Below are positions 34,627-56,375 of a stretch of 64,000 nt of DNA, in pieces. The notes under the pieces were generated by a model. The model saw nothing but the letters and a program-made list of their open reading frames with translations, was not told where the DNA came from and searched no databases. The stretch is from the NCBI GenBank assembly GCA_005400705.1, contig GCA_005400705.1_4079.1; one strand, written 5' to 3'. Within the stretch, counting starts at the first letter, position 1. Every line of letters starts with the position of its first letter. Both the position numbers and the translations under genes were made by a program. Origin of the DNA: Escherichia coli. GTDB lineage: Bacteria > Pseudomonadota > Gammaproteobacteria > Enterobacterales > Enterobacteriaceae.

Positions 34627-34823
34627 ATGGACTGTTTTTGAAGTTATTTGCCATTAACACATCAAAACTACCAGATACGGATAAAATTATTAAGTTAAAT
34701 GAAATCTACGTTCAAGCAACTCTAGGAACTAACTATCAAGAAGCCAATGTTTATAATTACATTAATACACTTAAAAGGGTAATACAATTAAAATGCACAG
34801 ACAGCACATACACAAACCCCTAG
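34581..34823 (+). CDS. Family B small protein
   Basis: 80 aa; core LGTNYQEANV. Confidence 0.65.
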   Translation: MQMRIITGEEYRTIINGLFLKLFAINTSKLPDTDKIIKLNEIYVQATLGTNYQEANVYNYINTLKRVIQLKCTDSTYTNP

Positions 34824-35023
34824 GAACAGCAGAATACATTGAACTAATGGCAGCAAACTTCTCATCCTTTCAGAAACTGATGCAAGAATCAAATAATGAT
34901 TTAGAATATCATATCAAAAGTTCAGATTTAAGATTGTTACTCACTCTAGGAACAGACAGTCAGTACAAATTCGTACAGGAGCATATTAGAGCACTTTTAA
35001 ATGGCATCAGGAATAAACTATGA
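34793..35023 (+). CDS. Family B small protein
   Basis: 76 aa; core LGTDSQYKFV. Confidence 0.6.
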   Translation: MHRQHIHKPLGTAEYIELMAANFSSFQKLMQESNNDLEYHIKSSDLRLLLTLGTDSQYKFVQEHIRALLNGIRNKL

Positions 35024-35235
35024 AGGTAATATCAAACCAAGAGTACTTGGCACTATTCAGAAAAAATAGTCAAGAATTTCTGAATCTTGATACAAGAACT
35101 GATATAAGTGAACTTGAAAAAAATCTTTTGCGTTCAGAGATGATAGTACTGACACTCTTAGGAACACAGCACCAAGAGAGAACTGTTAATTCACACATAG
35201 GGATTCTTATACAGATAGTACAGGAAAAGATATGA
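35020..35235 (+). CDS. Family B small protein
   Basis: 71 aa; core LGTQHQERTV. Confidence 0.65.
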   Translation: MKVISNQEYLALFRKNSQEFLNLDTRTDISELEKNLLRSEMIVLTLLGTQHQERTVNSHIGILIQIVQEKI

Positions 35236-35453
35236 GAATCATAACACAACAAGATATTCTTAAGTTCACAAGGGTTCATGCATCTGAATTTGATGCTATA
35301 TTATCAAAAAGTTACAACAACCCTTATACAGAAGATGTACACTACAGTGAATTATGGGTGTATATACTTTTAGGTACAGATCATCAAGAGCAAGCAGTAC
35401 AGAAGTATTTGTTAGCGTTAAGTACTGCTACTGCTAATGGAGTATGTGTTTAA
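35232..35453 (+). CDS. Family B small protein
   Basis: 73 aa; core LGTDHQEQAV. Confidence 0.65.
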   Translation: MRIITQQDILKFTRVHASEFDAILSKSYNNPYTEDVHYSELWVYILLGTDHQEQAVQKYLLALSTATANGVCV

Positions 35454-35697
35454 TATGAAAGTACTGACAGAATTAGAAATGTATCATAGATTTAATAAGT
35501 ACTATCATTTACTTAAACCTATACAGAGGATTAAGTGTCCCTTTGTAGTGAAACAGGTATTAATTTATGAGCATAAGTTATTTGTATCATTAGGTACGAA
35601 TGAACAAGAGTATTATTTGAAGTTGTACTTAATTACTTTAATTGAATTGATTAATTACAAAACTCAGAAAGCGAAGAAATCTAAAAATGAAAACTAA
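35437..35697 (+). CDS. Family B small protein
   Basis: 86 aa; core LGTNEQEYYL. Confidence 0.6.
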   Translation: MEYVFNMKVLTELEMYHRFNKYYHLLKPIQRIKCPFVVKQVLIYEHKLFVSLGTNEQEYYLKLYLITLIELINYKTQKAKKSKNEN

Positions 35698-36028
35698 AAT
35701 TCAACTCAGGGTATACATATCGTATGAAAATATATACGTTAAAAGTAGTCTATGTAAAGATGTAATGGACTACAAAGGTAAACCATTCACAGTTACTTAC
35801 AGTTTAACAGGAGGTTTATATATCTCTTTTGCTAATTACGAAAATAATATGTACGAACACATTGACATTGAAGATTTAAGTACTTTATCACCAGAGGAAT
35901 ACTTCCAGGAATCATTAGTATGGGATTTAGAGTTCCCTATGCCATTAGTACATAAGATGATAGTACTAATGAAAGAATCTAAACAGGAGCCTAATAGTGC
36001 TTATGAAGAACACATTATTGAGTATTAA
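35687..36028 (+). CDS. Family C protein (embedded in family B array)
   Basis: 113 aa; core EEYFQESLVWD. Confidence 0.65.
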   Translation: MKTKIQLRVYISYENIYVKSSLCKDVMDYKGKPFTVTYSLTGGLYISFANYENNMYEHIDIEDLSTLSPEEYFQESLVWDLEFPMPLVHKMIVLMKESKQEPNSAYEEHIIEY

Positions 36029-36040
36029 GAGTACTGATAT

Positions 36041-36256
36041 ATGAAAAGATTATCATACAAAGATTACAGTAAACTTATCAGTACTTTACAACCAGAAATT
36101 AGAAGAATTAATTATCTTCCTATATCTAACGAAGAACGTGTAGTACTGAAAAATGAGTTAATCTTAAAACGCACAGTAGGTACTAACTATCAAGATAATA
36201 GTGTTCGCGATTTAATTAGAGGGTTAATGATCACAATAAAGGCCAAGTGCTATTGA
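36041..36256 (+). CDS. Family B small protein
   Basis: 71 aa; core VGTNYQDNSV. Confidence 0.65.
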   Translation: MKRLSYKDYSKLISTLQPEIRRINYLPISNEERVVLKNELILKRTVGTNYQDNSVRDLIRGLMITIKAKCY

Positions 36257-36262
36257 CAGTAC

Positions 36263-36291
36263 TTGACGGAGCTTTTCATTACTGATATAGT
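36263..36291 (+). promoter_or_regulatory. Internal sigma70-like promoter
   Basis: TTGACG 36263-36268, 17 nt, TATAGT 36286-36291. Confidence 0.4.
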
Positions 36292-36320
36292 GCATCAACG
36301 TTAATCATAGGGTACAGATT

Positions 36321-36566
36321 ATGTTAAAATTTTTAAATTTCCTTATCGTCTTGTGTATTGTTCTTGGAATTGCACCGTTTGTATTAGCGTATCTGGATTC
36401 AGATGAAATGCAGAAGATGAATTGCACAAAGACAGGACAGAGTAGAGAAGAGACGGTTATGATGCCTGTAACGGTTATTGTGAATAACATACCAATTACG
36501 AACATGATTCCTACCCTAACGACAACGTACCAGTACTCTTGTGCTGACGGAGAGAGGTGGAGATGA
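36321..36566 (+). CDS. Small membrane protein
   Basis: 81 aa; hydrophobic N-terminus MLKFLNFLIVLCIVLGIAPFVLAYL. Confidence 0.55.
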   Translation: MLKFLNFLIVLCIVLGIAPFVLAYLDSDEMQKMNCTKTGQSREETVMMPVTVIVNNIPITNMIPTLTTTYQYSCADGERWR

Positions 36567-36874
36567 AATTTAATATAGCAAAAACATCGAGTATATGTAT
36601 TTTTGGTTATTCCTATGAATTGGGTGATATTGACATTCTATTGTACAAAACGAATGGTGTTATGCATTTCAAGTACCAGGATGAAGAGGCAGACAATTAT
36701 CTTTTACCTAATTTAGTACAAATGCAGGAAGAGGAATTATTCCAGTACAGCTTAATATACGACATTGATATTTGCACGATGCCAGTATTAATTAGTATTC
36801 AAAAAGTGATGCTCGATATGTATGATAAGCTAATACAAGGTATGTCAGGGAGGATCATTGAAATCGATATATAA
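36557..36874 (+). CDS. Family C protein
   Basis: 105 aa; core EELFQYSLIYD. Confidence 0.65.
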   Translation: MEMKFNIAKTSSICIFGYSYELGDIDILLYKTNGVMHFKYQDEEADNYLLPNLVQMQEEELFQYSLIYDIDICTMPVLISIQKVMLDMYDKLIQGMSGRIIEIDI

Positions 36875-37070
36875 GAATTTACCTAATGAATATTTGTTGA
36901 AGTACAAAGAGTTTATTAAAGATGTATATGTAGATCCTTTTAATATCAAATTTGCAGAGTTCGAAGTATCATTTTATCTAGGGACAATAGTACAGGACCA
37001 ATACGTTGATAATCTAATAAGGTGTTTGAAAAAGGAGATACAATGCAGACCCAAATGTACAAAAAAATAA
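36858..37070 (+). CDS. Family B small protein
   Basis: 70 aa; core LGTIVQDQYV. Confidence 0.6.
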   Translation: MKSIYKNLPNEYLLKYKEFIKDVYVDPFNIKFAEFEVSFYLGTIVQDQYVDNLIRCLKKEIQCRPKCTKK

Positions 37071-37306
37071 ACTGTTATTTGTATGCATCAAAGTACAGGG
37101 ATTTTTGTTTACGAGGGGGAGAGGAAGATTTTGCTCTGAGATTATCGGAATTTAATATGTTATTTTATCTTGGTACATCAGTACAAGAAGAAATGGTACA
37201 GAAATTTATCAATCACCTTGTACAAAAAATTAATATGCAAATTTTGATGCTTGAGTTACAGAATGAGATAAACAAATATGAACCCAACAATAGTACAGGA
37301 TCTTAA
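37043..37306 (+). CDS. Family B small protein
   Basis: Track ORF trimmed to ATG 37043 after SD aaaggag; core LGTSVQEEMV. Confidence 0.6.
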   Translation: MQTQMYKKINCYLYASKYRDFCLRGGEEDFALRLSEFNMLFYLGTSVQEEMVQKFINHLVQKINMQILMLELQNEINKYEPNNSTGS

Positions 37307-37667
37307 ACAAGTAATATTCCTTTTGAATACAAGAAGTGAAATGTATACAGAGTTTAAAGAGATTAATGCATTTTATCAGAATTTTGTAATTCAAGAGTTC
37401 AGTGATTTAATTACAGATGCATTATTTGAATTATCGGAAAAATACAAAGGAACAGAGTTCAGTGTTAAAAATGTATTACGTTCTTTATCAACGCGTATAA
37501 TAAAATTAGATCATTTCAAATTTGAAAATAAAGATTTATTCAGTCACAATCCAAGTACAGCTTTATATTTTATTCCTGATTCAGACAAAAATCATCCTAT
37601 TCATTACGGATGGATTTTGTCGTACATAGTACAAGGAAAGGAGTATCCTATTAAATGGAACGATTAG
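37278..37667 (+). CDS. Hypothetical protein
   Basis: 129 aa ORF, no family motif. Confidence 0.5.
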   Translation: MNPTIVQDLKQVIFLLNTRSEMYTEFKEINAFYQNFVIQEFSDLITDALFELSEKYKGTEFSVKNVLRSLSTRIIKLDHFKFENKDLFSHNPSTALYFIPDSDKNHPIHYGWILSYIVQGKEYPIKWND

Positions 37668-37815
37668 GGCGATTAGATTATTACACAATTAATACAAATT
37701 ATTTGTTGCGTAATATAAAATCCGATTACAAAATATGGATAAAGAACAGAGATAGTATGTGTTATGAATTTTATTTAGATTATGCCATCAAACGCTTTTT
37801 AAGAGAAGAACATTA

Positions 37816-38007
37816 ATGCACACACCGCACAAAGAGCACAAAAATACAAAAACGATAAATGTTTTAAATGATTCTTTATTGGTGAGTATAAATTTATATT
37901 ATAAAATTCATTTAAATGGTGGTATTGAAAATTTTAGTTATTATTTGAGTGCAATATCGCAAGAGCATTTAATATACCAAGATCATTTATTGCACCCGAA
38001 TCCATAA
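37816..38007 (+). CDS. Hypothetical small protein
   Basis: 63 aa ORF, low complexity. Confidence 0.3.
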   Translation: MHTPHKEHKNTKTINVLNDSLLVSINLYYKIHLNGGIENFSYYLSAISQEHLIYQDHLLHPNP

Positions 38008-38015
38008 GGCGAATT

Positions 38016-38561
38016 ATGAATGAGATAGAATTATTAGCACACAAGATTAGTACAATAATGCTTATCCTAAATAACAACCATCCTATATCGCAGATAGATG
38101 GAATCCTGAGTCAGAGGACAGGTGGTAGTTTATATTTGACATTAACAGAGGTTATCGCAAGGAATTACATTGATATTGAAATCGAGAACAGTGATGCATC
38201 AGGAAAGGTTGATGTAGGTGCATTAATCAGTTCAAATCCAGTATCAGCATCCCCATTGACCAAAGGTGTTAGTACAGGATTCGAAGGGTATTTGTGGTAC
38301 AATACCAATGATGATTATTTTATATATCAGCATTCCAATACAAATTATGATGAAGACAAATTTCAGTTCATAGACCCTTATGATGAAGCTGAAGTATTTC
38401 AAAAATCATTAATCACAAAACCGCATGAGATGATGTATCTAATGTTATTCAGTACAATGCATTTGAATCCATTAATTAAAGGTTTAAAATTTTATATTCA
38501 ATTAAATTTAGTCCATGTAGTTTATGATTTATTAATGCAAGGATATAGTTATGAAGTATAA
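38016..38561 (+). CDS. Family C protein
   Basis: 181 aa; core EAEVFQKSLITK. Confidence 0.65.
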   Translation: MNEIELLAHKISTIMLILNNNHPISQIDGILSQRTGGSLYLTLTEVIARNYIDIEIENSDASGKVDVGALISSNPVSASPLTKGVSTGFEGYLWYNTNDDYFIYQHSNTNYDEDKFQFIDPYDEAEVFQKSLITKPHEMMYLMLFSTMHLNPLIKGLKFYIQLNLVHVVYDLLMQGYSYEV

Positions 38562-38862
38562 AATGATGTATACCCCAGATATGATTTATGTTGAATTAGA
38601 AGATGATGACGATGGGTGGAATTTGATTTATTCAAGAAGTTCAGGTTGGTACATGGCACATTTAAATGATTCGATAGTTACAGATTATTTTGTAGATTTC
38701 AATACATTATCCGATGAAGAATTGTTCCAACAGCAATTAGTGATTGACACGGGTGGTTATGATGTCTTATTATTAAAAAAGATACAAAAAGCTGTTATTG
38801 ATTTTAAGCCCATGATATGGCAAAGGAAATATTATGACCTCGAAGTACCATACCAGCAATGA
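38551..38862 (+). CDS. Family C protein
   Basis: 103 aa; core EELFQQQLVID. Confidence 0.65.
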   Translation: MKYKMMYTPDMIYVELEDDDDGWNLIYSRSSGWYMAHLNDSIVTDYFVDFNTLSDEELFQQQLVIDTGGYDVLLLKKIQKAVIDFKPMIWQRKYYDLEVPYQQ

Positions 38863-39400
38863 AATTCAGTACACCTACGCTAATGCAATCCTTATGGGAC
38901 AAAAGTTAGCTTGTATTGTTGCAGCCTTATATAATGCCCAGAAATATCACAAGCGTCATTTCCACAAATGTATTGGTATTATTCCATCGAAGTACAATAC
39001 ATATATTGCGTGCACGAGTCATTTTGATAAACGATTCAATACACCTGATACCCCAAATGCCAGTAGTGTTATTGGTCTTTTGGATTTCGCACCTGGTGCT
39101 GTTATTGGAAAGAATGATTTAGAGTACACATGGTATAATAAAAATGCCCCGTTAGTAATGGGAAAATATGATACAGAAACGAATAAAACAATAGAGTACA
39201 ATACATATAAATCAGAGGAAGAATTTTTCCAAGGTTCATTGCTTGTACCAGTGCGTTTGTTGTTTTATAATGTCCTTATTAGTACAGTACACAATAGTCC
39301 ATTACACAAGAATCACAAAATTAATTTCAATTTTTGTGCTTATGCGATTGATGGTGTGTATGAGTGTTTAATGGAGGTATTGAGCTATGAAGCTGAATAA
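38834..39400 (+). CDS. Family C protein
   Basis: 188 aa; core EEFFQGSLLVP. Confidence 0.65.
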   Translation: MTSKYHTSNEIQYTYANAILMGQKLACIVAALYNAQKYHKRHFHKCIGIIPSKYNTYIACTSHFDKRFNTPDTPNASSVIGLLDFAPGAVIGKNDLEYTWYNKNAPLVMGKYDTETNKTIEYNTYKSEEEFFQGSLLVPVRLLFYNVLISTVHNSPLHKNHKINFNFCAYAIDGVYECLMEVLSYEAE

Positions 39401-39728
39401 TACATTTGATATTAATAAGTTAAGAGAATGGTTTTATAGTATTGAAATTGAAGCCATCCCGTATCATAGATATGAACAATATAATTTAACCAGTATTGAT
39501 ATCCGTGAGTTGTACGCGTATTATCAAAGTGCATTAGAGATGCATAAGTTATTTTTGAGTACAGATTTTGTTATAAATTACAATTTTGAGGAATTTAATA
39601 ATTATAATTTAGTACAGAAATATGTAGTAGCAAAGTACATGTACCTTCAAGGAATTACAAGTAATTTGGAATTCAATACAGTCCTGGCTTTAGTTGAGGT
39701 AATTTTATGCAGTACATGTATGATTTAG
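39387..39728 (+). CDS. Hypothetical protein
   Basis: 113 aa ORF; no clear family core. Confidence 0.5.
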   Translation: MKLNNTFDINKLREWFYSIEIEAIPYHRYEQYNLTSIDIRELYAYYQSALEMHKLFLSTDFVINYNFEEFNNYNLVQKYVVAKYMYLQGITSNLEFNTVLALVEVILCSTCMI

Positions 39729-40213
39729 AGTTTAGTTTAGATGCTGCCTTTAAATTTGTTCACAAGATAGAAACAATATACAGTACATTATGTGCAATAC
39801 AATCAGTATCATCTGAGTTTGATGTTGGTGAAAAATATCAGGTATGGAATAATACATTTCTAAACAAAGAACGTTGCTCTACGGGGTTTAATATTTTAAC
39901 ATTTAACCCCAGCAATTGTTACCCAGAGAAGCATGAACGTTATCCGAATGACGACATGTGGTTTGATTACACAAAAGATGGTGATATGTCATCCCTTGTA
40001 GTTCCTGATGATTTTAATGCCGAAGATTTAACGAAAGAGTGGTGGTTTCAACAGAATTTAGTACACGATGATATTGATTTATTTTTTTATGTAGTATTTA
40101 AAATGCTTTACCACAACAATATATTAAAAGATAGTGTGTTTTTTTCATGTCTATATATTGATGATTTGTACAATGAAATCCAAATCAACATGCCCAGAAC
40201 GCCTGTATCGTAA
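39707..40213 (+). CDS. Family C protein
   Basis: 168 aa; core KEWWFQQNLVHDD. Confidence 0.65.
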   Translation: MQYMYDLEFSLDAAFKFVHKIETIYSTLCAIQSVSSEFDVGEKYQVWNNTFLNKERCSTGFNILTFNPSNCYPEKHERYPNDDMWFDYTKDGDMSSLVVPDDFNAEDLTKEWWFQQNLVHDDIDLFFYVVFKMLYHNNILKDSVFFSCLYIDDLYNEIQINMPRTPVS

Positions 40214-40239
40214 GATATGGGCTTTTTTCGTTTTGGTAT

Positions 40240-40268
40240 TGACAAAGAAGTGCAAAGCTGTTATCATG
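40240..40268 (+). promoter_or_regulatory. Internal sigma70-like promoter (tattgacaaag class)
   Basis: gTATTGACAAAGaagtgcaaagctgtTATCAT; preceded by gggcttttttcg. Confidence 0.5.
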
Positions 40269-40295
40269 TGTAATCATTTTAAAGGAGAACATATA

Positions 40296-40817
40296 GTGAG
40301 TTTCATAATCCCAAGTACATACGAAGATGCATCAAGTGCAGTGTATAAGGTTCATTATATTTTTAATTTAATTATTAGTGCATCAAAAAATAAAATGTAT
40401 GCACCTCTTGTGAAATATGATAAAAATGAGGAAATTTTTGTTAGCACAGAACAAACGATTTTTCCATATTTCAAAGAAGATAGATTGTGGTTCATGCATT
40501 CAGTCGCATTACAAAGATATAATATAACAAGGTCCAATGAGCATGATTATTTGGATATACAATTAGATCAACCCGATATTGGAGAGGATGAATATTTTCA
40601 GTACAGCACAGTACACCACCATGAAGATATCTTTGCTGCTATGCTTATTGCTAAATTGAACACCGTTGATTTGGAGCAGCACAAATACAATAATAAATCA
40701 TGTAAGATCATAATCCCTGCATTCATTGCTCTTTATGATTACATTGTGCATAACAAAAAAGATGATACATATGCTTTCAATGAAGAGTATTTGAATTTTT
40801 TTAAGGAGAACATATGA
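40296..40817 (+). CDS. Family C protein (probable GTG start)
   Basis: Track ORF 40134-40817; ATG 40266 lies in the -10; in-frame GTG 40296 follows SD aaaggag; core DEYFQYSTVHHHE. Confidence 0.5.
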   Translation: MSFIIPSTYEDASSAVYKVHYIFNLIISASKNKMYAPLVKYDKNEEIFVSTEQTIFPYFKEDRLWFMHSVALQRYNITRSNEHDYLDIQLDQPDIGEDEYFQYSTVHHHEDIFAAMLIAKLNTVDLEQHKYNNKSCKIIIPAFIALYDYIVHNKKDDTYAFNEEYLNFFKENI

Positions 40818-41341
40818 GCAGTGAAGTGCTGAAATCAATGACATTCAATGAAATTGGTGCATTTAAAGATAAGATCATTGATTGCATTGAATACATGATT
40901 TGTAGTAATATCGAAAGTATTGAGATATTTAACAAGACAAATCGCTCTTACCATATGATGTACATTGCAAACAATAATGGTATCATTCCATTTATTTCGG
41001 ATAGTACAATATGGTACGCATGTGATACGAAAAAAACCACAATAGGTTTACATTCATTTGAGACACATTATGATCTAATTATTCCTGAACATTGTATGCA
41101 AGAAGAAGAATATTTTCAAATGCAATGTATACATTCACCATTAGTGTTGTTTAGTTTATATATTATACCTTATATCACCAAATGTGTTCATGAGAATAAA
41201 GCTCCGTGGAATCATGAATTTGTATCGTTGAAGTTATTGTATAATGTATTAGTAGAATATTATGATTACAGGCACAATGGTACAATCAGTGATGTATGGG
41301 ATTTTGAATCGCTAAGGGTGAAAACATACACAGGTGAATGA
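40814..41341 (+). CDS. Family C protein
   Basis: 175 aa; core EEEYFQMQCIHS. Confidence 0.65.
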   Translation: MSSEVLKSMTFNEIGAFKDKIIDCIEYMICSNIESIEIFNKTNRSYHMMYIANNNGIIPFISDSTIWYACDTKKTTIGLHSFETHYDLIIPEHCMQEEEYFQMQCIHSPLVLFSLYIIPYITKCVHENKAPWNHEFVSLKLLYNVLVEYYDYRHNGTISDVWDFESLRVKTYTGE

Positions 41342-41957
41342 TATGACCAGAATTAAAATGTATGATTTGATGCAGTACAGTAAAATTGCCATTCCAGTGC
41401 TTAATAAAGTGCTGGATGCATTCATTGCCAAATACCCTGAGAATTCAGTGTTATGTATTCCATTTAGTGTTCCAGATAAAGATGATATATTCCAAGTGAA
41501 TGTCAGTACACGTGGTATTACATTGCAGCAGAAATACATGGATACGGAATATTATGGAATAAAGTTGGATTCAGTACAGGGTTCAAAATCAGCCTATGAT
41601 TTTTTTGTTCCTAATAATATAGAGTCATGGGAAACAAACATTTCAAAGAAAGATGAAAATGATGTTCCTATTAGTGGTGTGTTCAACAATAAAGTTTTTT
41701 ATTATTACGAAACCGACAAATTCCCTGAAGAGTTATATTACAATTCAGAAATGAATGAAGATGTAGATGCATTCATGTTTCAATTATCGTTAGTACATGA
41801 TATCATTGATGTTCAAGAGTTAAGAGCAGAAATCAATTTAGCTAAAGAGTTATCGGACATGCTGCCACCGTTTAGTATGCTTTTTTGTGAAGGAGGTTAT
41901 TTTTCAAAAGAAGTGTTTGAACATTTCGTAGATGTTGTAAAAGGGTTGGATATATAG
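41334..41957 (+). CDS. Family C protein
   Basis: 207 aa; core DAFMFQLSLVHD. Confidence 0.65.
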   Translation: MNDMTRIKMYDLMQYSKIAIPVLNKVLDAFIAKYPENSVLCIPFSVPDKDDIFQVNVSTRGITLQQKYMDTEYYGIKLDSVQGSKSAYDFFVPNNIESWETNISKKDENDVPISGVFNNKVFYYYETDKFPEELYYNSEMNEDVDAFMFQLSLVHDIIDVQELRAEINLAKELSDMLPPFSMLFCEGGYFSKEVFEHFVDVVKGLDI

Positions 41958-41958
41958 T

Positions 41959-42153
41959 ATGCTTACAGTTGATGTTAAACAAAAATACCGTAAGTTTGAT
42001 TGGTTCACCGACAGTTTCCAGCTTGAATTATTACATTTGAATATCTGTGAAACATTATGTGCAGAAACACAAGATGAATTTGATGATAGAGTGCTTCACA
42101 TCGTAGTTCTTTCTTGCTTTAAACATTTTGGTTATTTTTTCGGACAGAATTGA
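41959..42153 (+). CDS. Hypothetical small protein (possible truncated family C)
   Basis: 64 aa; DSFQLELLHLN. Confidence 0.4.
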   Translation: MLTVDVKQKYRKFDWFTDSFQLELLHLNICETLCAETQDEFDDRVLHIVVLSCFKHFGYFFGQN

Positions 42154-42161
42154 GGTAAAAA

Positions 42162-42680
42162 ATGCATCAACACAAGCATCATTCATATGATTTTGCAATT
42201 AACATTATGAAGTTCATTCGAGCGTTGGAGGATGGGAAGCTTAGTCATAAGTACACCAAAGTGGGTGACAATTGGTTCAGAAATGATGATGATGAGTTCA
42301 GAAGTCATAAGATTGTTTACAGCAATAATTACAGTGCCAATTACCTACAAGATGTAGTGATGTGTTTTGAATACGTGTTACAGTTCAGGGGTTCCATCAG
42401 TCCTGAGCTAAGAGAACACATGTACATTCGATACCTACCAATGCTTAAGGATGAGAAATCAATATTCAATTCAGTACACCACAGAGTACGAGAGAGAACA
42501 TTCAGAGATATTTTGGAAGATGAAGCTGCCTATTTTCAGCAATCATTGATTGATGCTCCTGATGTGTTACAGATGCAGAATTTGTATAATGTATTAGATG
42601 CGAACATCGATACGGATATCTTTTTTTCCTTAAGTGATTATGAAACATTTTTGGAAGATTTAAAGGAAATAGGATTATGA
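42162..42680 (+). CDS. Family C protein
   Basis: 172 aa; core EAAYFQQSLIDA. Confidence 0.65.
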   Translation: MHQHKHHSYDFAINIMKFIRALEDGKLSHKYTKVGDNWFRNDDDEFRSHKIVYSNNYSANYLQDVVMCFEYVLQFRGSISPELREHMYIRYLPMLKDEKSIFNSVHHRVRERTFRDILEDEAAYFQQSLIDAPDVLQMQNLYNVLDANIDTDIFFSLSDYETFLEDLKEIGL

Positions 42681-43021
42681 GTAGATTTTCAGTTTATATA
42701 GTAAACGTCAGTAAAGATGGTAGTTTAATTGAATTTGATGTAGTTGATAACAATGATAATTCATATGGTATTAAGGTACAGGACAATGATGTACAGTTCA
42801 GTACAAGGACAAATTTTGAGAATCCAGTCCAAGTTCCGAATTTCATAGAAGATGAAGCTGCACGATTCCAATACGAAACGGCCTTTGATAATTTAGCGAT
42901 GCATATTATTATGCAAGAAAGTTTAGTTCAATTGCTTCAGGTATTCAGACAAAATATATATGTACATGAAGTGTCGATTAATGGCATTCAAAGTTCCGTT
43001 TTGTTCGGTACAAATATGTAA
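42677..43021 (+). CDS. Family C protein
   Basis: 114 aa; core EAARFQYETAFD. Confidence 0.6.
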   Translation: MSRFSVYIVNVSKDGSLIEFDVVDNNDNSYGIKVQDNDVQFSTRTNFENPVQVPNFIEDEAARFQYETAFDNLAMHIIMQESLVQLLQVFRQNIYVHEVSINGIQSSVLFGTNM

Positions 43022-43031
43022 GGAAAGTACA

Positions 43032-43586
43032 ATGAGTTCAATGAGTTTATTAGATACATTAGAAAAAGACAGAAGTGCCATTAAGAGATTAAAAAATCTT
43101 GTCCAGAGCATTGCGAACAACGCTGAGAAGTTCAGTGACAATCTTAGTATAGGTGATATAACCAGTACAGGAATAAAATCCCTGAAGTCAGATTTATTAA
43201 TTCATAAGGAAGATAAATTATTATTTGTATTGAGTTCAGATTTAATGGTTGCAAGTAATGGTTTCAATTCGATATCAACACAAGATGGTAGCACAGGATT
43301 ATATCTATCACAGGGTGTCCAGACGAACGAACAGAAGTGTTTTAGTTCAGGAGTACAGAATCCCTTTAAGTTCAGTACAGAACAAGCTACAGAGCTTTTA
43401 GAGGCTTCAGAAGAGATGTTATTTCAGTACAAAACGGTTCATACAGATTTTGAATTACGATGCATGTACGCTGTTAAGCATTATGTTCAGGAGTTCGAGG
43501 ATTTAAGTTATCTTTTAGTTCGAACGAATACAAAGAACATTGGTGCATTAGAAGATTACATTTCAAAAGTTGTTAAAGGTTGTTAA
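43032..43586 (+). CDS. Family C protein
   Basis: Track ORF 42960-43586 trimmed to ATG 43032 after SD aaggaaag; core EEMLFQYKTVHTD. Confidence 0.6.
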   Translation: MSSMSLLDTLEKDRSAIKRLKNLVQSIANNAEKFSDNLSIGDITSTGIKSLKSDLLIHKEDKLLFVLSSDLMVASNGFNSISTQDGSTGLYLSQGVQTNEQKCFSSGVQNPFKFSTEQATELLEASEEMLFQYKTVHTDFELRCMYAVKHYVQEFEDLSYLLVRTNTKNIGALEDYISKVVKGC

Positions 43587-43749
43587 AGGGTGCTGATGAA
43601 AGAGTTATTTGAAGAACAGTTCGATACATATGTGGATAATATTCTTTATTCTAGCCGTGCTAGTCAACGAGGAAATCGTGCTTACAACATAGATTACCTA
43701 TTAACGGTGCTGAGTTCACAGTACACCTACGCTGTACAGAGGACATATT

Positions 43750-43953
43750 ATGAATAATTTTAGAGATGTTGCAAAGGAGAAGTTCAAGTGCAGTTTAGAT
43801 TACGGTTTAAATGATTTTCTTACATGCACAATGTACAGGAATGATGATTATGAGCAATCCGTAATTTCGTTGCACAGATATTTCGAAATAATTTACGCAA
43901 GATATCTTAGAAGGTTAGATGGGATAGGGGATTGGAATTATGATTACGTTTGA
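43750..43953 (+). CDS. Hypothetical small protein
   Basis: 67 aa ORF. Confidence 0.45.
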   Translation: MNNFRDVAKEKFKCSLDYGLNDFLTCTMYRNDDYEQSVISLHRYFEIIYARYLRRLDGIGDWNYDYV

Positions 43954-44164
43954 AGAGCCGGAAGTGGTATATTGCTTTAGTGTGAAAGGTTTTGAATACA
44001 TGATGGATTCGATTTTGAAGGATACATATTTGGTTCAGATTGCAGTTACAGATAATACAGATAATGCATTACAGCGTGTAATGAATATGTACGAGAAGAC
44101 AAGTCGAAGGCTTTGTGCAATGAAAAGGATTGAAGAAATCAAGGTTTCTAGGCTGAATAAATAG
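43940..44164 (+). CDS. Hypothetical small protein
   Basis: 74 aa ORF. Confidence 0.45.
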   Translation: MITFEEPEVVYCFSVKGFEYMMDSILKDTYLVQIAVTDNTDNALQRVMNMYEKTSRRLCAMKRIEEIKVSRLNK

Positions 44165-44364
44165 AGACGTTTCATTTTGACAGGCCGCAGGGGGGTCAAA
44201 AAAATTTCCGCTGAAAAACATGCTAAGGTATATGTTTAATATAAAGTTTTATATTGTGTTTTTCAGAGTACAGTTTATGTTTCCTGAAACAAAAAAAAAA
44301 TACCCCGCCACCGAACGTGCTCCTTATATTGGAGTTTACCTTATTAATTATAGTAGAGATTAAG

Positions 44365-44742
44365 ATGGAAATAAAATATAATGAATTTTGTGCAAGGACA
44401 TGGATGTACACTGGTGAGTTAGTTACGCACTCTAACTTATACAAGGGTGATTTAAACTACGCTAGGGACAAGATTTTAAAGTACTGGAATGCTGACTTTT
44501 ATTTGATGGATTTTAGTACTGGGTTTAGGGGTAAAGCAACCGAGATGTTGGACTATACAGTACTTGATGATGCTGCACTGTTTCAGGAGGCATTAGTATT
44601 TGATAAGAAGTACATCTGTACATTAGAAGAGATGATTGAATTACAGCGTAGAATTAAATGTATTCACAGGGAATGTATAGATATCTGGTGCAGTACTGGT
44701 GAAGTTGATTTTTGTAATCATTTCAATCTAGGGGAAGTGTGA
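44365..44742 (+). CDS. Family C protein
   Basis: Track ORF 44254-44742 trimmed to ATG 44365 (MEIKYNEF); core DAALFQEALVFDKKYICT. Confidence 0.6.
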   Translation: MEIKYNEFCARTWMYTGELVTHSNLYKGDLNYARDKILKYWNADFYLMDFSTGFRGKATEMLDYTVLDDAALFQEALVFDKKYICTLEEMIELQRRIKCIHRECIDIWCSTGEVDFCNHFNLGEV

Positions 44743-45098
44743 TGGAATTTGATTTTTTAATATCAGTACATTCTTTTAAGCACAGTTTTCAGTACTTTTG
44801 TAATTTAAACAAAGGTGATTTAATGCACAGTGCGAATGAGTATATTCATTTTACTGATGGTAAATTCTCATTTATTGATTACAGTTCATTAGATTTTCCA
44901 TACACTGATATGCCGGACTATACATTGATGGATGCTGGTGAACTATTTCAAGCTGCATTAGTATTTGACAAGAAGTACATCTGTACATTTGAAGAAGTAA
45001 TTACTATACAAAATGAAATGAAGGTGTATGCATCGTTGAATAAACCTAATGAATGTATTAATCAAGAATACAAATTCAATATAGGAATTCCAAAATGA
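44739..45098 (+). CDS. Family C protein
   Basis: 119 aa; core GELFQAALVFDKKYICT. Confidence 0.7.
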   Translation: MMEFDFLISVHSFKHSFQYFCNLNKGDLMHSANEYIHFTDGKFSFIDYSSLDFPYTDMPDYTLMDAGELFQAALVFDKKYICTFEEVITIQNEMKVYASLNKPNECINQEYKFNIGIPK

Positions 45099-45454
45099 CA
45101 TATGATTATTCTATGTACTATTATAAGTTACCTAAAGGATGGGACTTGTGCTGTAATCTTATTAAGGGAGACTCGGAACATGAGTTGAGTTTATATATGC
45201 ACTACAAAGATTCTTGTTTTAAATTTATTCATGTATTACATGATGGCTATGACTATGAATCTGAGAGTCTTATAGATTATACAGTACTGGACGATGGTGA
45301 ACTATTTCAGGAAGCATTAGTGTTTGATAAGAATAAGTACTCCTGTACATTTGAAGAAATGGTTTCTTTGCAAAATGAAATGAAGAGATTTGAAAAAGAA
45401 AACGTATTTAATCCATCCCCATCAAGAACGAATAATTATTATTTCAATATATGA
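45095..45454 (+). CDS. Family C protein
   Basis: 119 aa; core GELFQEALVFDKNKYSCT. Confidence 0.7.
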   Translation: MTYDYSMYYYKLPKGWDLCCNLIKGDSEHELSLYMHYKDSCFKFIHVLHDGYDYESESLIDYTVLDDGELFQEALVFDKNKYSCTFEEMVSLQNEMKRFEKENVFNPSPSRTNNYYFNI

Positions 45455-45463
45455 GATTATAAA

Positions 45464-45958
45464 ATGACATTACAGAGTTCATTGGAAAAAGCAAAGAAGA
45501 TTCATGAGTACATGAATATGGCAAAAGAAGGTTCAGTTTACGGTGTTTTCAAAGACACAAGTACTCAATATTATGTGCCGGATAACCTCCTTTATAATGA
45601 CTGCTCAGATACAGAAACGTGCGTACTGGATACAGAAACGTGCATACTAGATACCGACCCTAATGATTATGAATGTTTCATTGATATGCATAATGAGTAC
45701 ATGGTCTATATTAATGATGCAGATATTACCATATACAGTACTGACTGCGATTCCGATGACATTATAATTCCGAGTGAAGTACTAGAAGGTCAGTGGGATA
45801 GTGAAGAGTATTACTTCCAACAAAGTACTGTTTACGATGATGAAGTACTTGAAGTATTAGTTATTATGTGGTACTTTAAAAGTATTGGTTCTGGGAACTT
45901 CTATTTCGATTACAGATACGTAACGAAAACTGTAGATAACGGTATTAACAGGGGTTGA
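45464..45958 (+). CDS. Family C protein
   Basis: 164 aa; core EEYYFQQSTVYDDEVLEVLVIMWYFK. Confidence 0.7.
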   Translation: MTLQSSLEKAKKIHEYMNMAKEGSVYGVFKDTSTQYYVPDNLLYNDCSDTETCVLDTETCILDTDPNDYECFIDMHNEYMVYINDADITIYSTDCDSDDIIIPSEVLEGQWDSEEYYFQQSTVYDDEVLEVLVIMWYFKSIGSGNFYFDYRYVTKTVDNGINRG

Positions 45959-45959
45959 A

Positions 45960-46430
45960 ATGAGTTTAGAAAGAGCATTAGAGATTGCGAAGTTAATTGA
46001 TTTATGCAGCAAAGAAATTGTATCAAATTGTCTCAATGGATATCTATTCAAGGAAGGTAAATCATATTGTCGAATGATATACGATGACAGTAGTGAATAT
46101 ATCCATATGTATGAAGAAAACTTAGATGATTCTGACATAGTACTCACAGGATGTGATGTTAATTTGGAAGATAATTACATGTACTTCTGCCGTGATGCTG
46201 ATATTTTAATCCAAGATTCATTAATTCAAACAGGTGCACCAGAGGTATATCTTCCGTATTCAGTACTGGATAATAACTGGGGTAGTGAAGATTACTATTT
46301 CCAGCAGAGTACTATATATAATGAAGATATACTTGACAAACTTGTTATTTCTTGGTACTTTCATAACACGGATTATAGTAGCTTCTACATAGACTTGGAT
46401 CTACTAAGAGTACTTAAAGAGGATATATGA
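45960..46430 (+). CDS. Family C protein
   Basis: 156 aa; core EDYYFQQSTIYNEDILDKLVISWYF. Confidence 0.7.
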   Translation: MSLERALEIAKLIDLCSKEIVSNCLNGYLFKEGKSYCRMIYDDSSEYIHMYEENLDDSDIVLTGCDVNLEDNYMYFCRDADILIQDSLIQTGAPEVYLPYSVLDNNWGSEDYYFQQSTIYNEDILDKLVISWYFHNTDYSSFYIDLDLLRVLKEDI

Positions 46431-46867
46431 GTTTAGAAAAAGCACTAGAACTAGCCAACAAAATACATCAGTACCATGATAAAATAAAAAGTGGGTTCTA
46501 TGCTGATAAAGTACATGCATATGGGAATGAATATTACCTCACTGGAGTAAAGAGATACTCTAATGATATTTTACTTATGGGTCATGATAAAGACAATAAT
46601 ATACAGTACTCTTCATGTAGTCAATATACTAGTTTTATGGTATATATTCCTGGTACTAAGATTACTTTTGACACATCAAATACACCTGTTGACTTCGGAG
46701 TACTTGATGGCCCGTGGGGTACTGAAGAGTATTACTTCCAACAGAGTCTCATTTTTAACCAAGAAATGCTTGATTCCTTGGTTGTGTTGTGGTACTTTAA
46801 GGAATTGAATTTTGAACCATTCTTTCTTGACTGGGGATCATGTGAGTATTTAATTTCAGGGGAATAA
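46427..46867 (+). CDS. Family C protein
   Basis: 146 aa; core EEYYFQQSLIFNQEMLDSLVVLWYFK. Confidence 0.7.
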   Translation: MSLEKALELANKIHQYHDKIKSGFYADKVHAYGNEYYLTGVKRYSNDILLMGHDKDNNIQYSSCSQYTSFMVYIPGTKITFDTSNTPVDFGVLDGPWGTEEYYFQQSLIFNQEMLDSLVVLWYFKELNFEPFFLDWGSCEYLISGE

Positions 46868-46869
46868 TA

Positions 46870-47358
46870 ATGTCATTACAAAGTGCATTGAAAGAAGCAA
46901 AGAAAATTCATGAGTACATGATTATGGTACAGGAAGGTTCAGTACCAGGTGTATACAAAACATCAGATACGGAATTCTTCGTTAAGGATAGAGATGATTA
47001 TGACGAATCAGAGGTATGTGCAGAAACATTAGTACTGCACACTGATACTGGTGACAGTGATAACTGTGAATATCATATGTACAACCAGTACATTAGTTAT
47101 TGCCGTAATGAAGATATTACCATCTACAACACAGATAGTGATGCTGATGACACTATCATTCCTTATTCAGTACTGGAAGGTCAGTGGGATAGTGAAGAAT
47201 ATTACTTCCAGAATAGTACTATCTACAATGAAGAAGAACTGGATGTTATTGTGATTATGTGGTATTTCAAAAGTATTGACTCCAGTAGTTTCTATTTTGA
47301 TTATGAATATGTAGAGAATACAGTAGGAGAAGGTAATGTCATTACAAAGTGCTCTTGA
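46870..47358 (+). CDS. Family C protein
   Basis: 162 aa; core EEYYFQNSTIYNEEELDVIVIMWYFK. Confidence 0.7.
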   Translation: MSLQSALKEAKKIHEYMIMVQEGSVPGVYKTSDTEFFVKDRDDYDESEVCAETLVLHTDTGDSDNCEYHMYNQYISYCRNEDITIYNTDSDADDTIIPYSVLEGQWDSEEYYFQNSTIYNEEELDVIVIMWYFKSIDSSSFYFDYEYVENTVGEGNVITKCS

Positions 47359-47788
47359 AAAAGCAAAAGAACTACATGGATACTTTGAAGATATAAAGGC
47401 CGGAAAGTTCAAAGAAGTGTACAAAGCCGAGAACGGTAACTACTACAAAGATGAAATGTATAATAACTCCGTTAGTGTAAGGGTTATTCTTGGGTTGAAT
47501 TCCAATAGTCCTATATCGTTTTCTGAATACAATAGAGATGCAGAATTTATTAGTTATGTTGAAAATGGTAGCATTCGTTTTATTAATAGACAAAAACCAT
47601 TAATTTTGAATTATGAAGTACTGAATGGTCCGTGGAATAGTGAAGAGTATTACTTCCAAAACAGTACTGTATATGATGATGAAGTACTTGAAGCATTAGT
47701 TATTATGTGGTACTTCAAGAGTGTTAGCTGTCCTCGATTTTATTTGGATTTCGAAGATCTTCGTAAAGATCCAGAAGGTATAGAATGA
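47336..47788 (+). CDS. Family C protein
   Basis: 150 aa; core EEYYFQNSTVYDDEVLEALVIMWYFK. Confidence 0.7.
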   Translation: MSLQSALEKAKELHGYFEDIKAGKFKEVYKAENGNYYKDEMYNNSVSVRVILGLNSNSPISFSEYNRDAEFISYVENGSIRFINRQKPLILNYEVLNGPWNSEEYYFQNSTVYDDEVLEALVIMWYFKSVSCPRFYLDFEDLRKDPEGIE

Positions 47789-48099
47789 AAAACTTATTCA
47801 GTGTTCAGTACGTTCCTGGTGAAATTGGTTTATTGTATCTATTTGACCATGATAATTCATTATTACTAGTAGTGAAGAAATGCCAAGCTAGTTCGTTTGT
47901 TGAATACATTCACGATAGTGAATACATTCCTGATTTCCTAGAGTGTGATTATCACGATGAACATGAATCATTTATTTTTCAGGAATCACTCGTTTGGAAT
48001 AAGTCTATTAACTTCTTTACGTTAATTGAATTACAAAAGCAGGTGAAGTATCATTGGGATTACTTAATTACACAGGATTACATTGAGATAGAAATATAA
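47785..48099 (+). CDS. Family C protein
   Basis: 104 aa; core ESFIFQESLVWN. Confidence 0.65.
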   Translation: MKNLFSVQYVPGEIGLLYLFDHDNSLLLVVKKCQASSFVEYIHDSEYIPDFLECDYHDEHESFIFQESLVWNKSINFFTLIELQKQVKYHWDYLITQDYIEIEI

Positions 48100-48407
48100 T
48101 GACTAAAAATGAATTTGATTCACTTTGTACGGTTTATAATTCATTGACAGAAATACCTGACTTTATTAATTACATTTCAGCTTTAAATCAAATTATGCAT
48201 AGTTTTGAACAATCGTTTGAAGAGAAATATGCAGGTAGAAAAGTTCTATGTCATATGTCAATGTACTTGGGAGATGGTGAGCCTTACACTACCAGTACTA
48301 CATGTGAAATAAAAAAATATAATATATTATTGGGGACAATAGAATTCAAGGTATCCAATGGTGGTAGTTATATGTACTTTAGAGATGGAGTGGTTGAATT
48401 ATTATGA
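48099..48407 (+). CDS. Hypothetical protein
   Basis: 102 aa ORF without family core. Confidence 0.5.
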   Translation: MTKNEFDSLCTVYNSLTEIPDFINYISALNQIMHSFEQSFEEKYAGRKVLCHMSMYLGDGEPYTTSTTCEIKKYNILLGTIEFKVSNGGSYMYFRDGVVELL

Positions 48408-48853
48408 GTTACGAAAGTGCAATCAAGAAAGCAAATGATATTCTAAAAGTTGTTAAGTTCTTCAAAGAAAATCCTGAATACTTAGCTGATGAAAACCATG
48501 ATCACGATGAGAGATTGAGACGAAAAATTGTTTCTTTATTTGACACTAATGCAGATAATTATAGTCTAATTGAGTTAGCATACGATTATATTTCATTGAA
48601 CCGAAACGGAAATTTAGTTAATATAGAAAGACATGAGAGTGAAGAATCTTTTAAAATTTCAGACATTTTATCCCTGAGTACTGAAGAAGGGTACTTCCAG
48701 GGTAGTACTGTTTATGAACAAGGAACACTTGACAATCTATGCACATTCAGTGTAATATATCAGAAATCAGTACTGGATGTATTTTATCTTGACACTGCTG
48801 AACTGGATACACTAACCAATTTTGTTACTACTGAAGAGGCCACATTCGAGTGA
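48404..48853 (+). CDS. Family C protein
   Basis: 149 aa; core EEGYFQGSTVYE. Confidence 0.65.
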   Translation: MSYESAIKKANDILKVVKFFKENPEYLADENHDHDERLRRKIVSLFDTNADNYSLIELAYDYISLNRNGNLVNIERHESEESFKISDILSLSTEEGYFQGSTVYEQGTLDNLCTFSVIYQKSVLDVFYLDTAELDTLTNFVTTEEATFE

Positions 48854-49386
48854 TGAAAGTTAACATCAATGACTTTGATGCATTACAAGATTTATCAAAA
48901 AAGATTCGTATCATCGTACCAGTACTAAAAAAATGCAGTACTGGTTTAATTGATCCTAGTACTGTTGTTAATGAGAAGTACAATTTTCATCGTGTATTAC
49001 AGGGTACAGGTGCATTTCAGAAGTGTGATGTACGTGAGAAACACGTAATTGATACATCATTGTTTTCTATTGGTGCACCTGTGTCGAATAATTCTATTTT
49101 CTTGGATAACGCAGGAAATATTCAACAATTAACATTTAAGAAAAGGAAAAAGAACAATAACATTGGTGTGTACGCGATGAAGTGGGGGCAACCTGATTTG
49201 AAGCGTGAAATTCACATCCCTAAGTACAATTACAATGCATTTGACGAACAGTGTTTTCAACTATCGTGTACTGACCCTGACTATGCAATCATTCAGTTCT
49301 ATATGGAATTGCAGATAGCATTTAATAGTAATTTGTATATTAACTTATTGGCGATGAACATCGATGAAGTATTCAAAAACATTTAA
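48850..49386 (+). CDS. Family C-like protein
   Basis: 178 aa; core DEQCFQLSCTD. Confidence 0.55.
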   Translation: MMKVNINDFDALQDLSKKIRIIVPVLKKCSTGLIDPSTVVNEKYNFHRVLQGTGAFQKCDVREKHVIDTSLFSIGAPVSNNSIFLDNAGNIQQLTFKKRKKNNNIGVYAMKWGQPDLKREIHIPKYNYNAFDEQCFQLSCTDPDYAIIQFYMELQIAFNSNLYINLLAMNIDEVFKNI

Positions 49387-49582
49387 TCGAATTGAATACA
49401 TGAGAACTGTGAGTGCAGTGTGGGATATATGGTTCACTACTAAACCAAAAATGGATTACCATGACTTTAAGCTATTGTTCTTCATTGGCTCTAACAAACA
49501 GGATGTTGCAATGAAGGGTTATATTCAGCACTTACAGGAACTAATACAGAAGAGGGTTAATGAAAATAATAGACCAAGATGA
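49364..49582 (+). CDS. Family B small protein (embedded in family C array)
   Basis: 72 aa; core IGSNKQDVAM. Confidence 0.55.
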   Translation: MKYSKTFNRIEYMRTVSAVWDIWFTTKPKMDYHDFKLLFFIGSNKQDVAMKGYIQHLQELIQKRVNENNRPR

Positions 49583-49751
49583 TATTGCTAAACTATTCAA
49601 TATATATTCTACTAGAATGATGCAAACAGACTCATATAGTACTGAATTCAAAGAGTTGAAAGTACTGATGTACTTGGGAACCCAATATCAGGAACAAGTT
49701 ATTTTGGAATATATTAATTCGTTGAAGAAGGATATCCGTTATGTACGATGA
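49560..49751 (+). CDS. Family B small protein (embedded in family C array)
   Basis: 63 aa; core LGTQYQEQVI. Confidence 0.6.
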   Translation: MKIIDQDDIAKLFNIYSTRMMQTDSYSTEFKELKVLMYLGTQYQEQVILEYINSLKKDIRYVR

Positions 49752-50301
49752 TTTAGATCTTGCGTTTGAACGTATGGTAATTTTAATGCAATGTGCAGAA
49801 ATGCATGAAACAATCCGTCGCACCAAAGGGATTGAATATACAAGTAAACTATTCTCATACGAAAGTCGTCGAGGGATGGATCATTTTTACTGCACTGATT
49901 GTTCAAAGTTTTCAGTACTGAAATATTATCATCCTACTGTTTCCAATAATAGTTTAATATCCACATATGATGGTGATCTGTTTAGTGTAATGTATGACAC
50001 ATTACATCCATCAATTTCAATCTATAAAGATTGCGATAGTAGTTTATCGTATATAATTGAAGATTACTTATCTCCTAATACTGAAGAGAATATTTTTCAG
50101 AACAGTGTGTTGCATGATGAATTAAGTATAAAATGCATCTATATGTTCAATAAGTTAAAAGAGTACGCCGATAATAATTACTTCATTGATGATTTAGCGG
50201 TATTGTCTGTTTCCGTTTTTAATACAAATGATATTGATATGAAATACTATAATGAGATTTGTAAAGTACATCATATGTATAAGGAACTATTATGTCAATA
50301 A
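49741..50301 (+). CDS. Family C protein
   Basis: 186 aa; core EENIFQNSVLHD. Confidence 0.65.
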   Translation: MYDDLDLAFERMVILMQCAEMHETIRRTKGIEYTSKLFSYESRRGMDHFYCTDCSKFSVLKYYHPTVSNNSLISTYDGDLFSVMYDTLHPSISIYKDCDSSLSYIIEDYLSPNTEENIFQNSVLHDELSIKCIYMFNKLKEYADNNYFIDDLAVLSVSVFNTNDIDMKYYNEICKVHHMYKELLCQ

Positions 50302-50894
50302 ATGCAAATAAATGTTGTAGTGCAAATGTGCATTTGTTTTTTAAGAAATTAGCAAATGATATTATATATATGCAGGAAATGATTTATCACAAACGAGCGG
50401 ATTTAGAAAAAGCATTAGTACAGTTCTCATTTATGCTTGATGGTGATATATTTCTAGAGAGTGATGCATTGCGAATAGTATTAGACAAAAATGCTAAAAG
50501 ATTTTTATTTCATATAGATAATAAATTATGTTCCTCCGTATGTCGTACTTTTTATAATCGTGATTCGGACTTATATCAATTCCTTTATTCCAAAGGTGCA
50601 GTAGAAGCATCATATGGTGATGGTTATGCCCTAGGAAAGAGTATTCCATTTATGAAATCATTTAAAATAGAACACATCAGTACTGATGAAGATGCAATGT
50701 TCACAAATGATATAACTATGGGACGTGAAGATGCAATGCGATATATTACAAATTCTATGCATACATTCTTTCAACGAACAGAATTTGATAATGTATATAT
50801 ATCAAATGTAAATATTTTCAATGACCTGTGTCAGTACTTGAGAAGTGTTTGTGACTTCGATGAAAGTTATTGTAAGCTATACACTGAGGTATAA
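50292..50894 (+). CDS. Hypothetical protein (degenerate family C core)
   Basis: 200 aa; DEDAMFTNDITMG at the expected position. Confidence 0.5.
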   Translation: MSINANKCCSANVHLFFKKLANDIIYMQEMIYHKRADLEKALVQFSFMLDGDIFLESDALRIVLDKNAKRFLFHIDNKLCSSVCRTFYNRDSDLYQFLYSKGAVEASYGDGYALGKSIPFMKSFKIEHISTDEDAMFTNDITMGREDAMRYITNSMHTFFQRTEFDNVYISNVNIFNDLCQYLRSVCDFDESYCKLYTEV

Positions 50895-50899
50895 AACAA

Positions 50900-52493: not shown

Positions 52494-52519
52494 CACCCTC
52501 CGATTCTTTGTGATATAAT
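52490..52519 (+). promoter_or_regulatory. Internal sigma70-like promoter within an inverted repeat
   Basis: TTGACA 52490-52495, 18 nt, TATAAT 52514-52519; tgtgatataa (52508-52517) pairs with ttatatcaca (52541-52550). Confidence 0.45.
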
Positions 52520-52552
52520 CTCTTTATATTAATTGTAAAGGGTTATATCACA

Positions 52553-56368: not shown

Positions 56369-56375
56369 TTTATGG

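Follow-up and report, generated by a model that had tools for sequence, protein, structure and literature searches.

Small paralogous genes of two families, B and C, fill adjacent arrays in a 64,000-nt stretch of DNA deposited as Escherichia coli (assembly GCA_005400705.1, contig GCA_005400705.1_4079.1; this whole stretch is called the window below), and genes of each family are found inside the array of the other (Table 1). We consider it likely that this interleaving is old and inherited, and that the changes now seen come from gene birth and death at the junction of the two arrays and from recombination between phages, in an accessory and probably early segment of the genome. A preliminary description of the window had concluded from the mixed gene order that the arrays are still exchanging genes. 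For the most part the results did not bear this out, and they caution against taking a mixed gene order as a sign of active shuffling: the B genes inside the C array are fixed in 33 phage records, no similarity at the nucleotide level links the interleaved genes to their paralogs, and several of them have orthologues of their own in a divergent relative, phage Turkey5.

Megablast assigned the window to the Asteriusvirus (121Q/PBECO4-like) group of jumbo coliphages. The match to phage 121Q is 93.7% identical over window positions 35014-50000, and there were 36 matching records in all, from Escherichia and Salmonella phages. In the map of open reading frames (ORFs) every gene from about 5.4 kb onward is on the plus strand. 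The 287 ORFs of the window were the set for all-against-all BLAST and for scoring with hidden Markov models (HMMs). Homologous regions were taken from seven phages: 121Q, slurp01, ph0011, Salmonella phage SD-15_S21, Turkey5, fEgEco12 (the junction alone), and Salmonella phage Munch, and their ORFs were classified with the same B and C HMMs as those of the window. The order of genes at the B/C junction was compared in seven genomes, i.e., the window and the six relatives other than Munch.

An array in the same phage group, almost certainly the same family B array, was read in one sentence as tandem duplication that expands the genome (Hua et al., 2017, mBio; PMC5646251), and the phAPEC6 paper (PMC7247149) echoes this statement. 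Family C and its FQ motif are absent from the account of Hua et al. (2017), as are the interleaving, the polymorphism at the junction, and the distribution over several genera. The arrays are not described in the CBB, Sharanji, and fEgEco12 papers or in the jumbo-phage review, and nothing was found in the literature on family C, its motif or the interleaving.

Table 1. Features of the B and C arrays, of their junction and of the family A region (positions in the window).
Feature	Position	Strand	Basis
219-aa gene in family A region	7043..7702	+	phrog_29152; EEEFMYSTV motif
Main family B array, 27 head-to-tail genes	29751..35697	+	BLAST cluster, HMM, alignment A2
Short family C gene, 113 aa, distal end of B array	35687..36028	+	Leave-out HMM, phrog_13866
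Family B gene, 71 aa, presence/absence polymorphism	36041..36256	+	HMM
Sigma70-like promoter candidate, TTGACG-17-TATAGT, extended-10 TG	36263..36291	+	Consensus scan
Small membrane or secreted protein, 81 aa, two Cys	36321..36566	+	N-terminal hydrophobic helix; phrog_8826
Short family C gene, 105 aa	36557..36874	+	Leave-out HMM; phrog_13866 E=2e-37
Two terminal family B genes	36858..37070, 37022..37306	+	HMM
Family C array, first part	38016..49386	+	Iterated HMM, alignment A1
Family B gene, 72 aa	49364..49582	+	Leave-out HMM, phrog_4148
Family B gene, 63 aa	49560..49751	+	Leave-out HMM, phrog_4148
Family C array, second part	49741..63687	+	HMM, alignment A1

Membership and position of the interleaved genes

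The B HMM was built on 26 genes at 29751-35697 only, and the C HMM was seeded with one 8-member cluster and iterated only on genes at or beyond 38016, so that neither profile contained the interleaved genes (genes are named here by their first position). Among the 287 ORFs the C HMM recovered 35687 (E=1.1e-8) and 36557 (E=2.6e-10) from among the B genes, and the B HMM recovered 49364 (E=1.1e-6) and 49560 (E=3.1e-12) from inside the C array, the next non-family ORF being at E=0.09. The other junction genes scored with the B HMM at E=2e-16 (36041), 1.7e-8 (36858), and 8.9e-8 (37022). In single-sequence phmmer searches 35687 and 36557 link to the short C members 50900, 44739, 53507, and 51608. 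The PHROG models agree with these assignments: 35687 and 36557 both match phrog_13866, 36557 also matches phrog_12674 as do members of the array, and 49364 and 49560 match phrog_4148 (E=5e-5 and 4e-17, respectively). The C motif takes the form EEYFQES in 35687 and EELFQYS in 36557; in the full-length B alignment, 49364 carries IGSNKQD and 49560 carries LGTQYQE at the conserved (L/I)G(T/S)xxQ(E/D) position. The families to which the preliminary description had assigned these four genes were thus upheld by formal alignment. Its C-like gene inside family A (7043) was not confirmed as such; it shares the short motif with family C and nothing that an HMM or phmmer search detects: hhalign aligned 23 columns around EEEFMYSTV/EExxFQxS, with a probability of 9% for the single sequence and up to 40% with 14 orthologues, and all the orthologues have M in place of the near-invariant Q.

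The position of the B pair 49364/49560 is conserved. A 501-nt segment made up of the pair and its flanks on both sides is found unbroken, and at a single location, in 33 phage records (83-99% nucleotide identity). In 121Q, slurp01, ph0011, and SD-15_S21 the orthologues of 48850 and 49741 border the pair on either side, and the proteins of the pair are 94-99% (49364) and 86-100% (49560) identical to those of the window. In the window the pair overlaps both neighbours by 11-23 nt (23 nt between 49364 and 48850-49386). The ratio of non-synonymous to synonymous substitution rates (dN/dS) is 0.07-0.20 for the pair and 0.11-0.17 for 49364. In Turkey5 a 49560-like gene stands in the same place and a 49364-like gene further upstream in the C array. 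Turkey5 has its own orthologues of 49560, 49364, 37022, and 36557; neighbour-joining (NJ) bootstrap values for the first three are 74, 88, and 78, and the orthologue of 36557 is 48% identical (phmmer E=3e-26). Since orthologues can be paired gene by gene, the paralogs had separated before these lineages split.

Traces of recent movement were looked for in the DNA. Self-BLASTN of the window (word size 9, E<1e-3) gave no match of the interleaved genes to any other place in it. The short repeats at insertion boundaries that the preliminary description had proposed to look for amount to imperfect matches of 11-31 nt at chance level; none of them is informative or brackets an inserted gene. Pfam detected no transposase, integrase or homing nuclease among the junction and non-family genes tested and the part of the array genes that was scanned.

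Gene content at the B/C junction

The seven genomes have seven different gene orders at the junction. With M for the membrane gene 36321, the order is C B M C B B in the window, C M C B B in 121Q, C C M C B B in slurp01, C B M C C B B in ph0011, C C M C in SD-15_S21, B M B C B in Turkey5, and C C B C M C C B in fEgEco12. The comparison of junctions called for in the preliminary description revealed presence or absence of single genes, not traffic of genes between the arrays. The B gene 36041 is present in ph0011, absent from 121Q, slurp01, and SD-15_S21, and found in only 11 phage records; 36858 and 37022 are both missing from SD-15_S21; 27 records have a junction C gene that is missing from the window. 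By phmmer the junction C genes are nearest to one another and not to C members of the main array, and orthologues of 35687 are 79-98% identical in four relatives. Differences in copy number between the relatives consist of these junction variants and of array lengths.

The fEgEco12 junction also has two tandem 35687-like C genes (fEgEco12 positions 49-665), one near the 121Q/window type and the other near the ph0011/slurp01 type. Two types that look like alleles elsewhere are side by side here, so that old paralogs, differentially retained, account for at least some of the variation. The gene 36858-37070 has a TTG start overlapping the end of 36557, with no in-frame ATG near the start, and is unusually divergent, with 37% identity in 121Q, 66% in slurp01, and 90% in ph0011. 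Two AGTACT sites (36030-36035 and 36257-36262) flank 36041; the hexamer recurs every 150-350 bp. AGTAC-containing microhomology on both sides raised the possibility that the indel between the window and 121Q is a simple deletion, and this was rejected: the sequences are not derivable from each other in that way.

The gene 36321 encodes a protein whose 19-residue Kyte-Doolittle mean reaches 2.82 (residues 7-25), vs. a maximum of 1.0-1.55 in families B and C. The promoter candidate upstream of it is in a 64-nt gap, the sole intergenic gap of the junction stretch, and is conserved in five phages irrespective of which gene lies upstream. The preliminary description had called 36321 an inserted membrane protein with its own promoter. 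A membrane protein with its own promoter-like site is indeed what we find; its status as an insert is not supported: all six relatives carry the gene (60-99% identity), which makes it a fixed component, not a recent insert.

Divergence, selection, and origin of the arrays

About 32 copies of family B, of 63-94 aa, are present in the window, 30 of them in one BLAST cluster of small genes. The genes of the main array encode 64-91 aa, mostly overlap by 4-46 nt and include one divergent member (31478). In the full-length alignment of 32 sequences (A2), G49, T50, Q53, and L64 are at least 90% conserved, with an LGTxxQE motif. The AlphaFold2 (AF2) model has four helices with a predicted local distance difference test score (pLDDT) of 94.2, and the PHROG match is phrog_4148 (unknown function), also for the array member 34375. 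An NJ tree grouped 49560 with the junction B genes and derived 36041 from 34375/34581; both groupings had only 20-23% bootstrap support and were dropped.

Family C has at least 49 copies of 100-230 aa in the window. BLAST split the 100-230-aa genes beyond 38 kb into several small clusters; the iterated HMM reached 36 members, and about a dozen more genes visibly carry the motif. When 49 C proteins were aligned (A1), the mean column identity was 11%, yet F113 and Q114, within the E-E-x-x-F-Q-x-S motif, were at least 90% conserved. Judged by this alignment, family C is a very divergent superfamily, which corrects a simpler picture of it. The motif E-E-x-(Y/F/L)-F-Q-x-S (e.g., 47200-47225 in gene 46870) is the sole strongly conserved element of the approximately 50 paralogs. 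An AF2 model based on the paralog alignment (pLDDT 89.4) has an N-terminal helix, seven strands, and then further helices, and it places the motif in a short, confidently predicted helix; the predicted fold is alpha/beta, without a solved relative. Fold searches of the PDB gave no match for the C or the B model; in BFVD the C model matched only uncharacterised proteins of related jumbo phages. Pfam has no curated family for the junction and non-family genes tested or for the part of the array genes scanned. The PHROG matches of family C (phrog_13866, 12674, 9317, and 38467) are all of unknown function; PHROGs treats family C as many separate families, with no record that they make up a single superfamily. 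Non-family genes stand in the first part of the C array at 39387, 41959, 42677, 43590-44164, and 48099. The second part includes weak motif-bearing members and one unrelated gene (61440-61853), whose ph0011 orthologue is annotated as a "putative ADP-ribosyl transferase"; it has no Pfam match, and the ORF is longer in SD-15_S21 (211 aa). Two non-adjacent C paralogs, otherwise far more diverged, share 88% nucleotide identity over 112 nt (45775-45886 vs. 47614-47725), possibly by gene conversion within one C subfamily.

The C motif resembles a 3C/TEV-type protease site (E-x-x-Y-x-Q|S). It would be a long shot to regard it as a recognition or processing site, shared beyond the structural core, for one common partner. 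If it were such a site, the C array would supply dozens of variable effector domains to one protease, chaperone or delivery adaptor, and the B and membrane genes kept among the C genes would be functional partners.

Median dN/dS is 0.32-0.36 for family B and 0.26-0.34 for family C, vs. 0.11-0.16 for the flanking early genes. By this measure B and C are real genes under relaxed, purifying constraint. Synonymous divergence (dS) from 121Q is 0.01-0.1 over most of the C array and rises to 0.3-1.9 at 38551, 42162, 42960, 52553-54254, and 61853. When slurp01 is considered along with 121Q, the patches extend over 38551-38862, 42162-43586, 52553-54748, and 61853-62371 with dS of 0.3-2.3, next to neighbours below 0.1. 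The divergent patches change with each partner phage. Such patchiness indicates, as far as sequence comparison can tell, cassette-wise replacement of alleles through recombination between phages. Divergence is also uneven in Turkey5: most flanking early proteins (Turkey5 100-8740 vs. window 21091-29531) are 94-100% identical and a few 84-91%, and the B/C array proteins (9055-38857 vs. 29751-63687) are 21-78% identical.

The two families differ in their distribution. Word-indexed profile searches returned only Asteriusvirus-type contigs for both B and C, and other genera were reached only with an exhaustive profile search. For family C the exhaustive search yielded 115 clusters at 50% identity, 68 of them less than 70% identical to anything in six phages and nearly all with the motif; examples map to Munch, 7t3, fENko-Kae01, RaK2, and K64-1. 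The BFVD matches of C came from GAP32, Serratia BF, and Yersinia Yen9 phages. The Munch locus has an array of about 28 C genes, about 18 of them HMM-positive; no B gene was found in this one 40-kb locus. Family C occurs in RaK2-like genera outside Asteriusvirus and thus predates the genus; family B, seen in the word-indexed search only in Asteriusvirus-type contigs, looks like a genus-level expansion.

We propose the following course of events. The region would be an accessory segment full of lineage-specific multigene families, arranged head to tail on one strand (as seen in the ORF map and the clustering) with overlapping stop and start codons. The arrays would have formed by birth and death, through tandem duplication long ago and slow divergence under purifying but relaxed selection. 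The interleaving would have arisen once, before the known Asteriusvirus lineages diverged, and been inherited since. Single cassettes may then have been deleted or differentially retained, with loss and gain concentrated at the B/C junction around the conserved promoter and membrane-gene module, and homologous recombination between co-circulating phages may have swapped divergent alleles at fixed positions. An early accessory role in host interaction would fit the position, the promoter type, the hypervariability, and the restriction to a lineage: the genes may be expressed early from host-type promoters and may act in host takeover or in evasion of defence.

Several observations weigh against this course of events. 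No duplication was observed in progress: DNA identity is about 70% between the closest paralogs, near-identical recent duplicates were not seen, and tandem duplication is therefore read from the arrangement alone. At least one relocation has occurred, given that Turkey5 has its 49364-like gene at another place in the C array. Deep nodes of the B tree have bootstrap values below 25%; the B genes in the C array may have been inserted into an older array or may have originated there. Finally, promoter consensus matches in total are not above chance (73 found vs. 88.7 expected).

In one alternative, family B was born inside an older C array, at or near 49364/49560 or at the junction, and expanded upstream later, the B genes within C being the founders. 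In its favour, another genus has C without B, and 49364 and 49560, the best conserved of the B genes, form deep, separate lineages in the tree of family B. The branching order on which this depends is, however, the one with the low bootstrap values, and the absence of B from Munch refers to a single locus, so that we regard a birth of B within C as unlikely.

Another possibility is that transfer or conversion of genes between the B and C arrays still goes on, through illegitimate recombination, transposition-like cassette movement or gene conversion, which would make the interleaving recent and continuing. Junction gene content that differs in six of six relatives, the displaced Turkey5 gene, and the 112-nt patch of conversion-like identity within a C subfamily are in its favour. 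We nevertheless judge it quite unlikely, in view of the B pair held at one place in 33 records, the interleaved genes without nucleotide similarity to any paralog and each in its own orthologue clade, the junction C genes closest to each other rather than to the main array, flanking repeats of chance-level length only, and the negative Pfam search for mobility genes.

Much the same low credence is given to a functional cause, in which B, C, and membrane proteins cooperate and co-translation from overlapping genes holds the partners adjacent. The B pair is under tighter constraint than a typical B gene (median dN/dS about 0.33) and overlaps both its neighbours; even Turkey5 keeps the membrane gene, the 36557-type C gene, and a B gene in one group; and in fEgEco12, which has the fullest junction, C and B genes are intermixed on either side of the membrane gene. 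Yet most B and C genes are in long homogeneous runs, the C array of Munch has no B genes, and junction cassettes are lost singly with their neighbours kept. That the family assignments are chance artefacts of short motifs, and the interleaving not real, is scarcely credible: the families are very divergent and 7043 resembles family C in the motif only, but the leave-out HMM scores (1e-6 to 3e-12) are well clear of background, the PHROG models concur independently, and the alignments are full-length.

An old, inherited interleaving altered by gain and loss has parallels in other viruses. In African swine fever virus the multigene families MGF 110/300/360/505 are interleaved families of small paralogs at variable genome ends. 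Copy numbers differ between isolates as members are gained and lost, and experiments have shown that the families take part in interferon evasion and host range. The window shares with them the interleaved small-paralog families and the gain and loss; it differs in belonging to a phage rather than a eukaryotic virus, in its unrelated proteins, and in being known from sequence. The hyperplastic regions, or plastic periphery, of T4-type phages (Comeau, Krisch and colleagues) reportedly consist of small early genes, mostly of unknown function, shuffled by recombination between conserved modules. Variation between close relatives is similar in the window; T4-type regions hold mostly unrelated ORFans, in contrast to about 80 paralogs in two families here. 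In the "genomic accordions" of poxviruses (K3L amplification), a host-interaction gene undergoes adaptive tandem copy-number change that leaves near-identical recent copies. Unlike such accordions, the present arrays appear old and stabilised, since overall DNA identity reaches at most about 70% in any pair. These paralogs take up about 35 kb, or one tenth, of a 350-kb phage genome. With its ancient conserved arrangement, the probable swaps of alleles between phages, and a family C that unites jumbo-phage genera, the block is a defined target for experiments.

Transcription signals and flanking sequences

Sigma70-like consensus sites are found in the few gaps of the arrays, some of them after terminator hairpins (29723, 36263, 40201-40267, ~52530, ~56350-56410, and ~59650-59690). 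Ahead of the B array is TTGACT-16-TAAAAT at 29723-29750. In the C array a terminator at 40201-40222 is followed by a promoter-like site at 40239-40267, and promoter- and terminator-like sequences are present in the gaps 52494-52552, 56346-56420, and 59645-59705.

Outside the B and C arrays, four tandem paralogs of 375-390 aa lie on the minus strand at 516-5332. The only one scanned (516-1688) matched RCC1-like beta-propeller repeats in Pfam. The four are probably counterparts of the ~40-kDa "DNA condensation proteins" of phAPEC6 virions, a name likely taken from "regulator of chromosome condensation". The early single-gene region contains scattered repeats of about 100-230 nt with 77-90% identity (13010-13201/22851-23042 and 19354-19581/25741-25966/22739-22927/28186-28287). 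They coincide with a family of small minus-strand ORFs, which may be spurious.

The palindrome AGTACT occurs 278 times in the window vs. 19.3 +/- 4.6 expected, a 14-fold excess, and CAGTACTG occurs 71 times vs. 0.85 expected. A function of AGTACT as part of an early promoter was considered and rejected: TTGACAGTACT occurs only 6 times and most sites are inside genes. No paper treating both AGTACT and jumbo phages was found in the literature. The sites are placed in genes as well as in gaps. They are densest in the A array and among the early single genes (7-8.5 per kb), number about 2.7 per kb in C and 1.2 per kb in the B array, where the interval 30294-35042 has none, and are missing altogether at 38-44 kb. 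Related loci, including that of Munch, have 3-4 AGTACT sites per kb.

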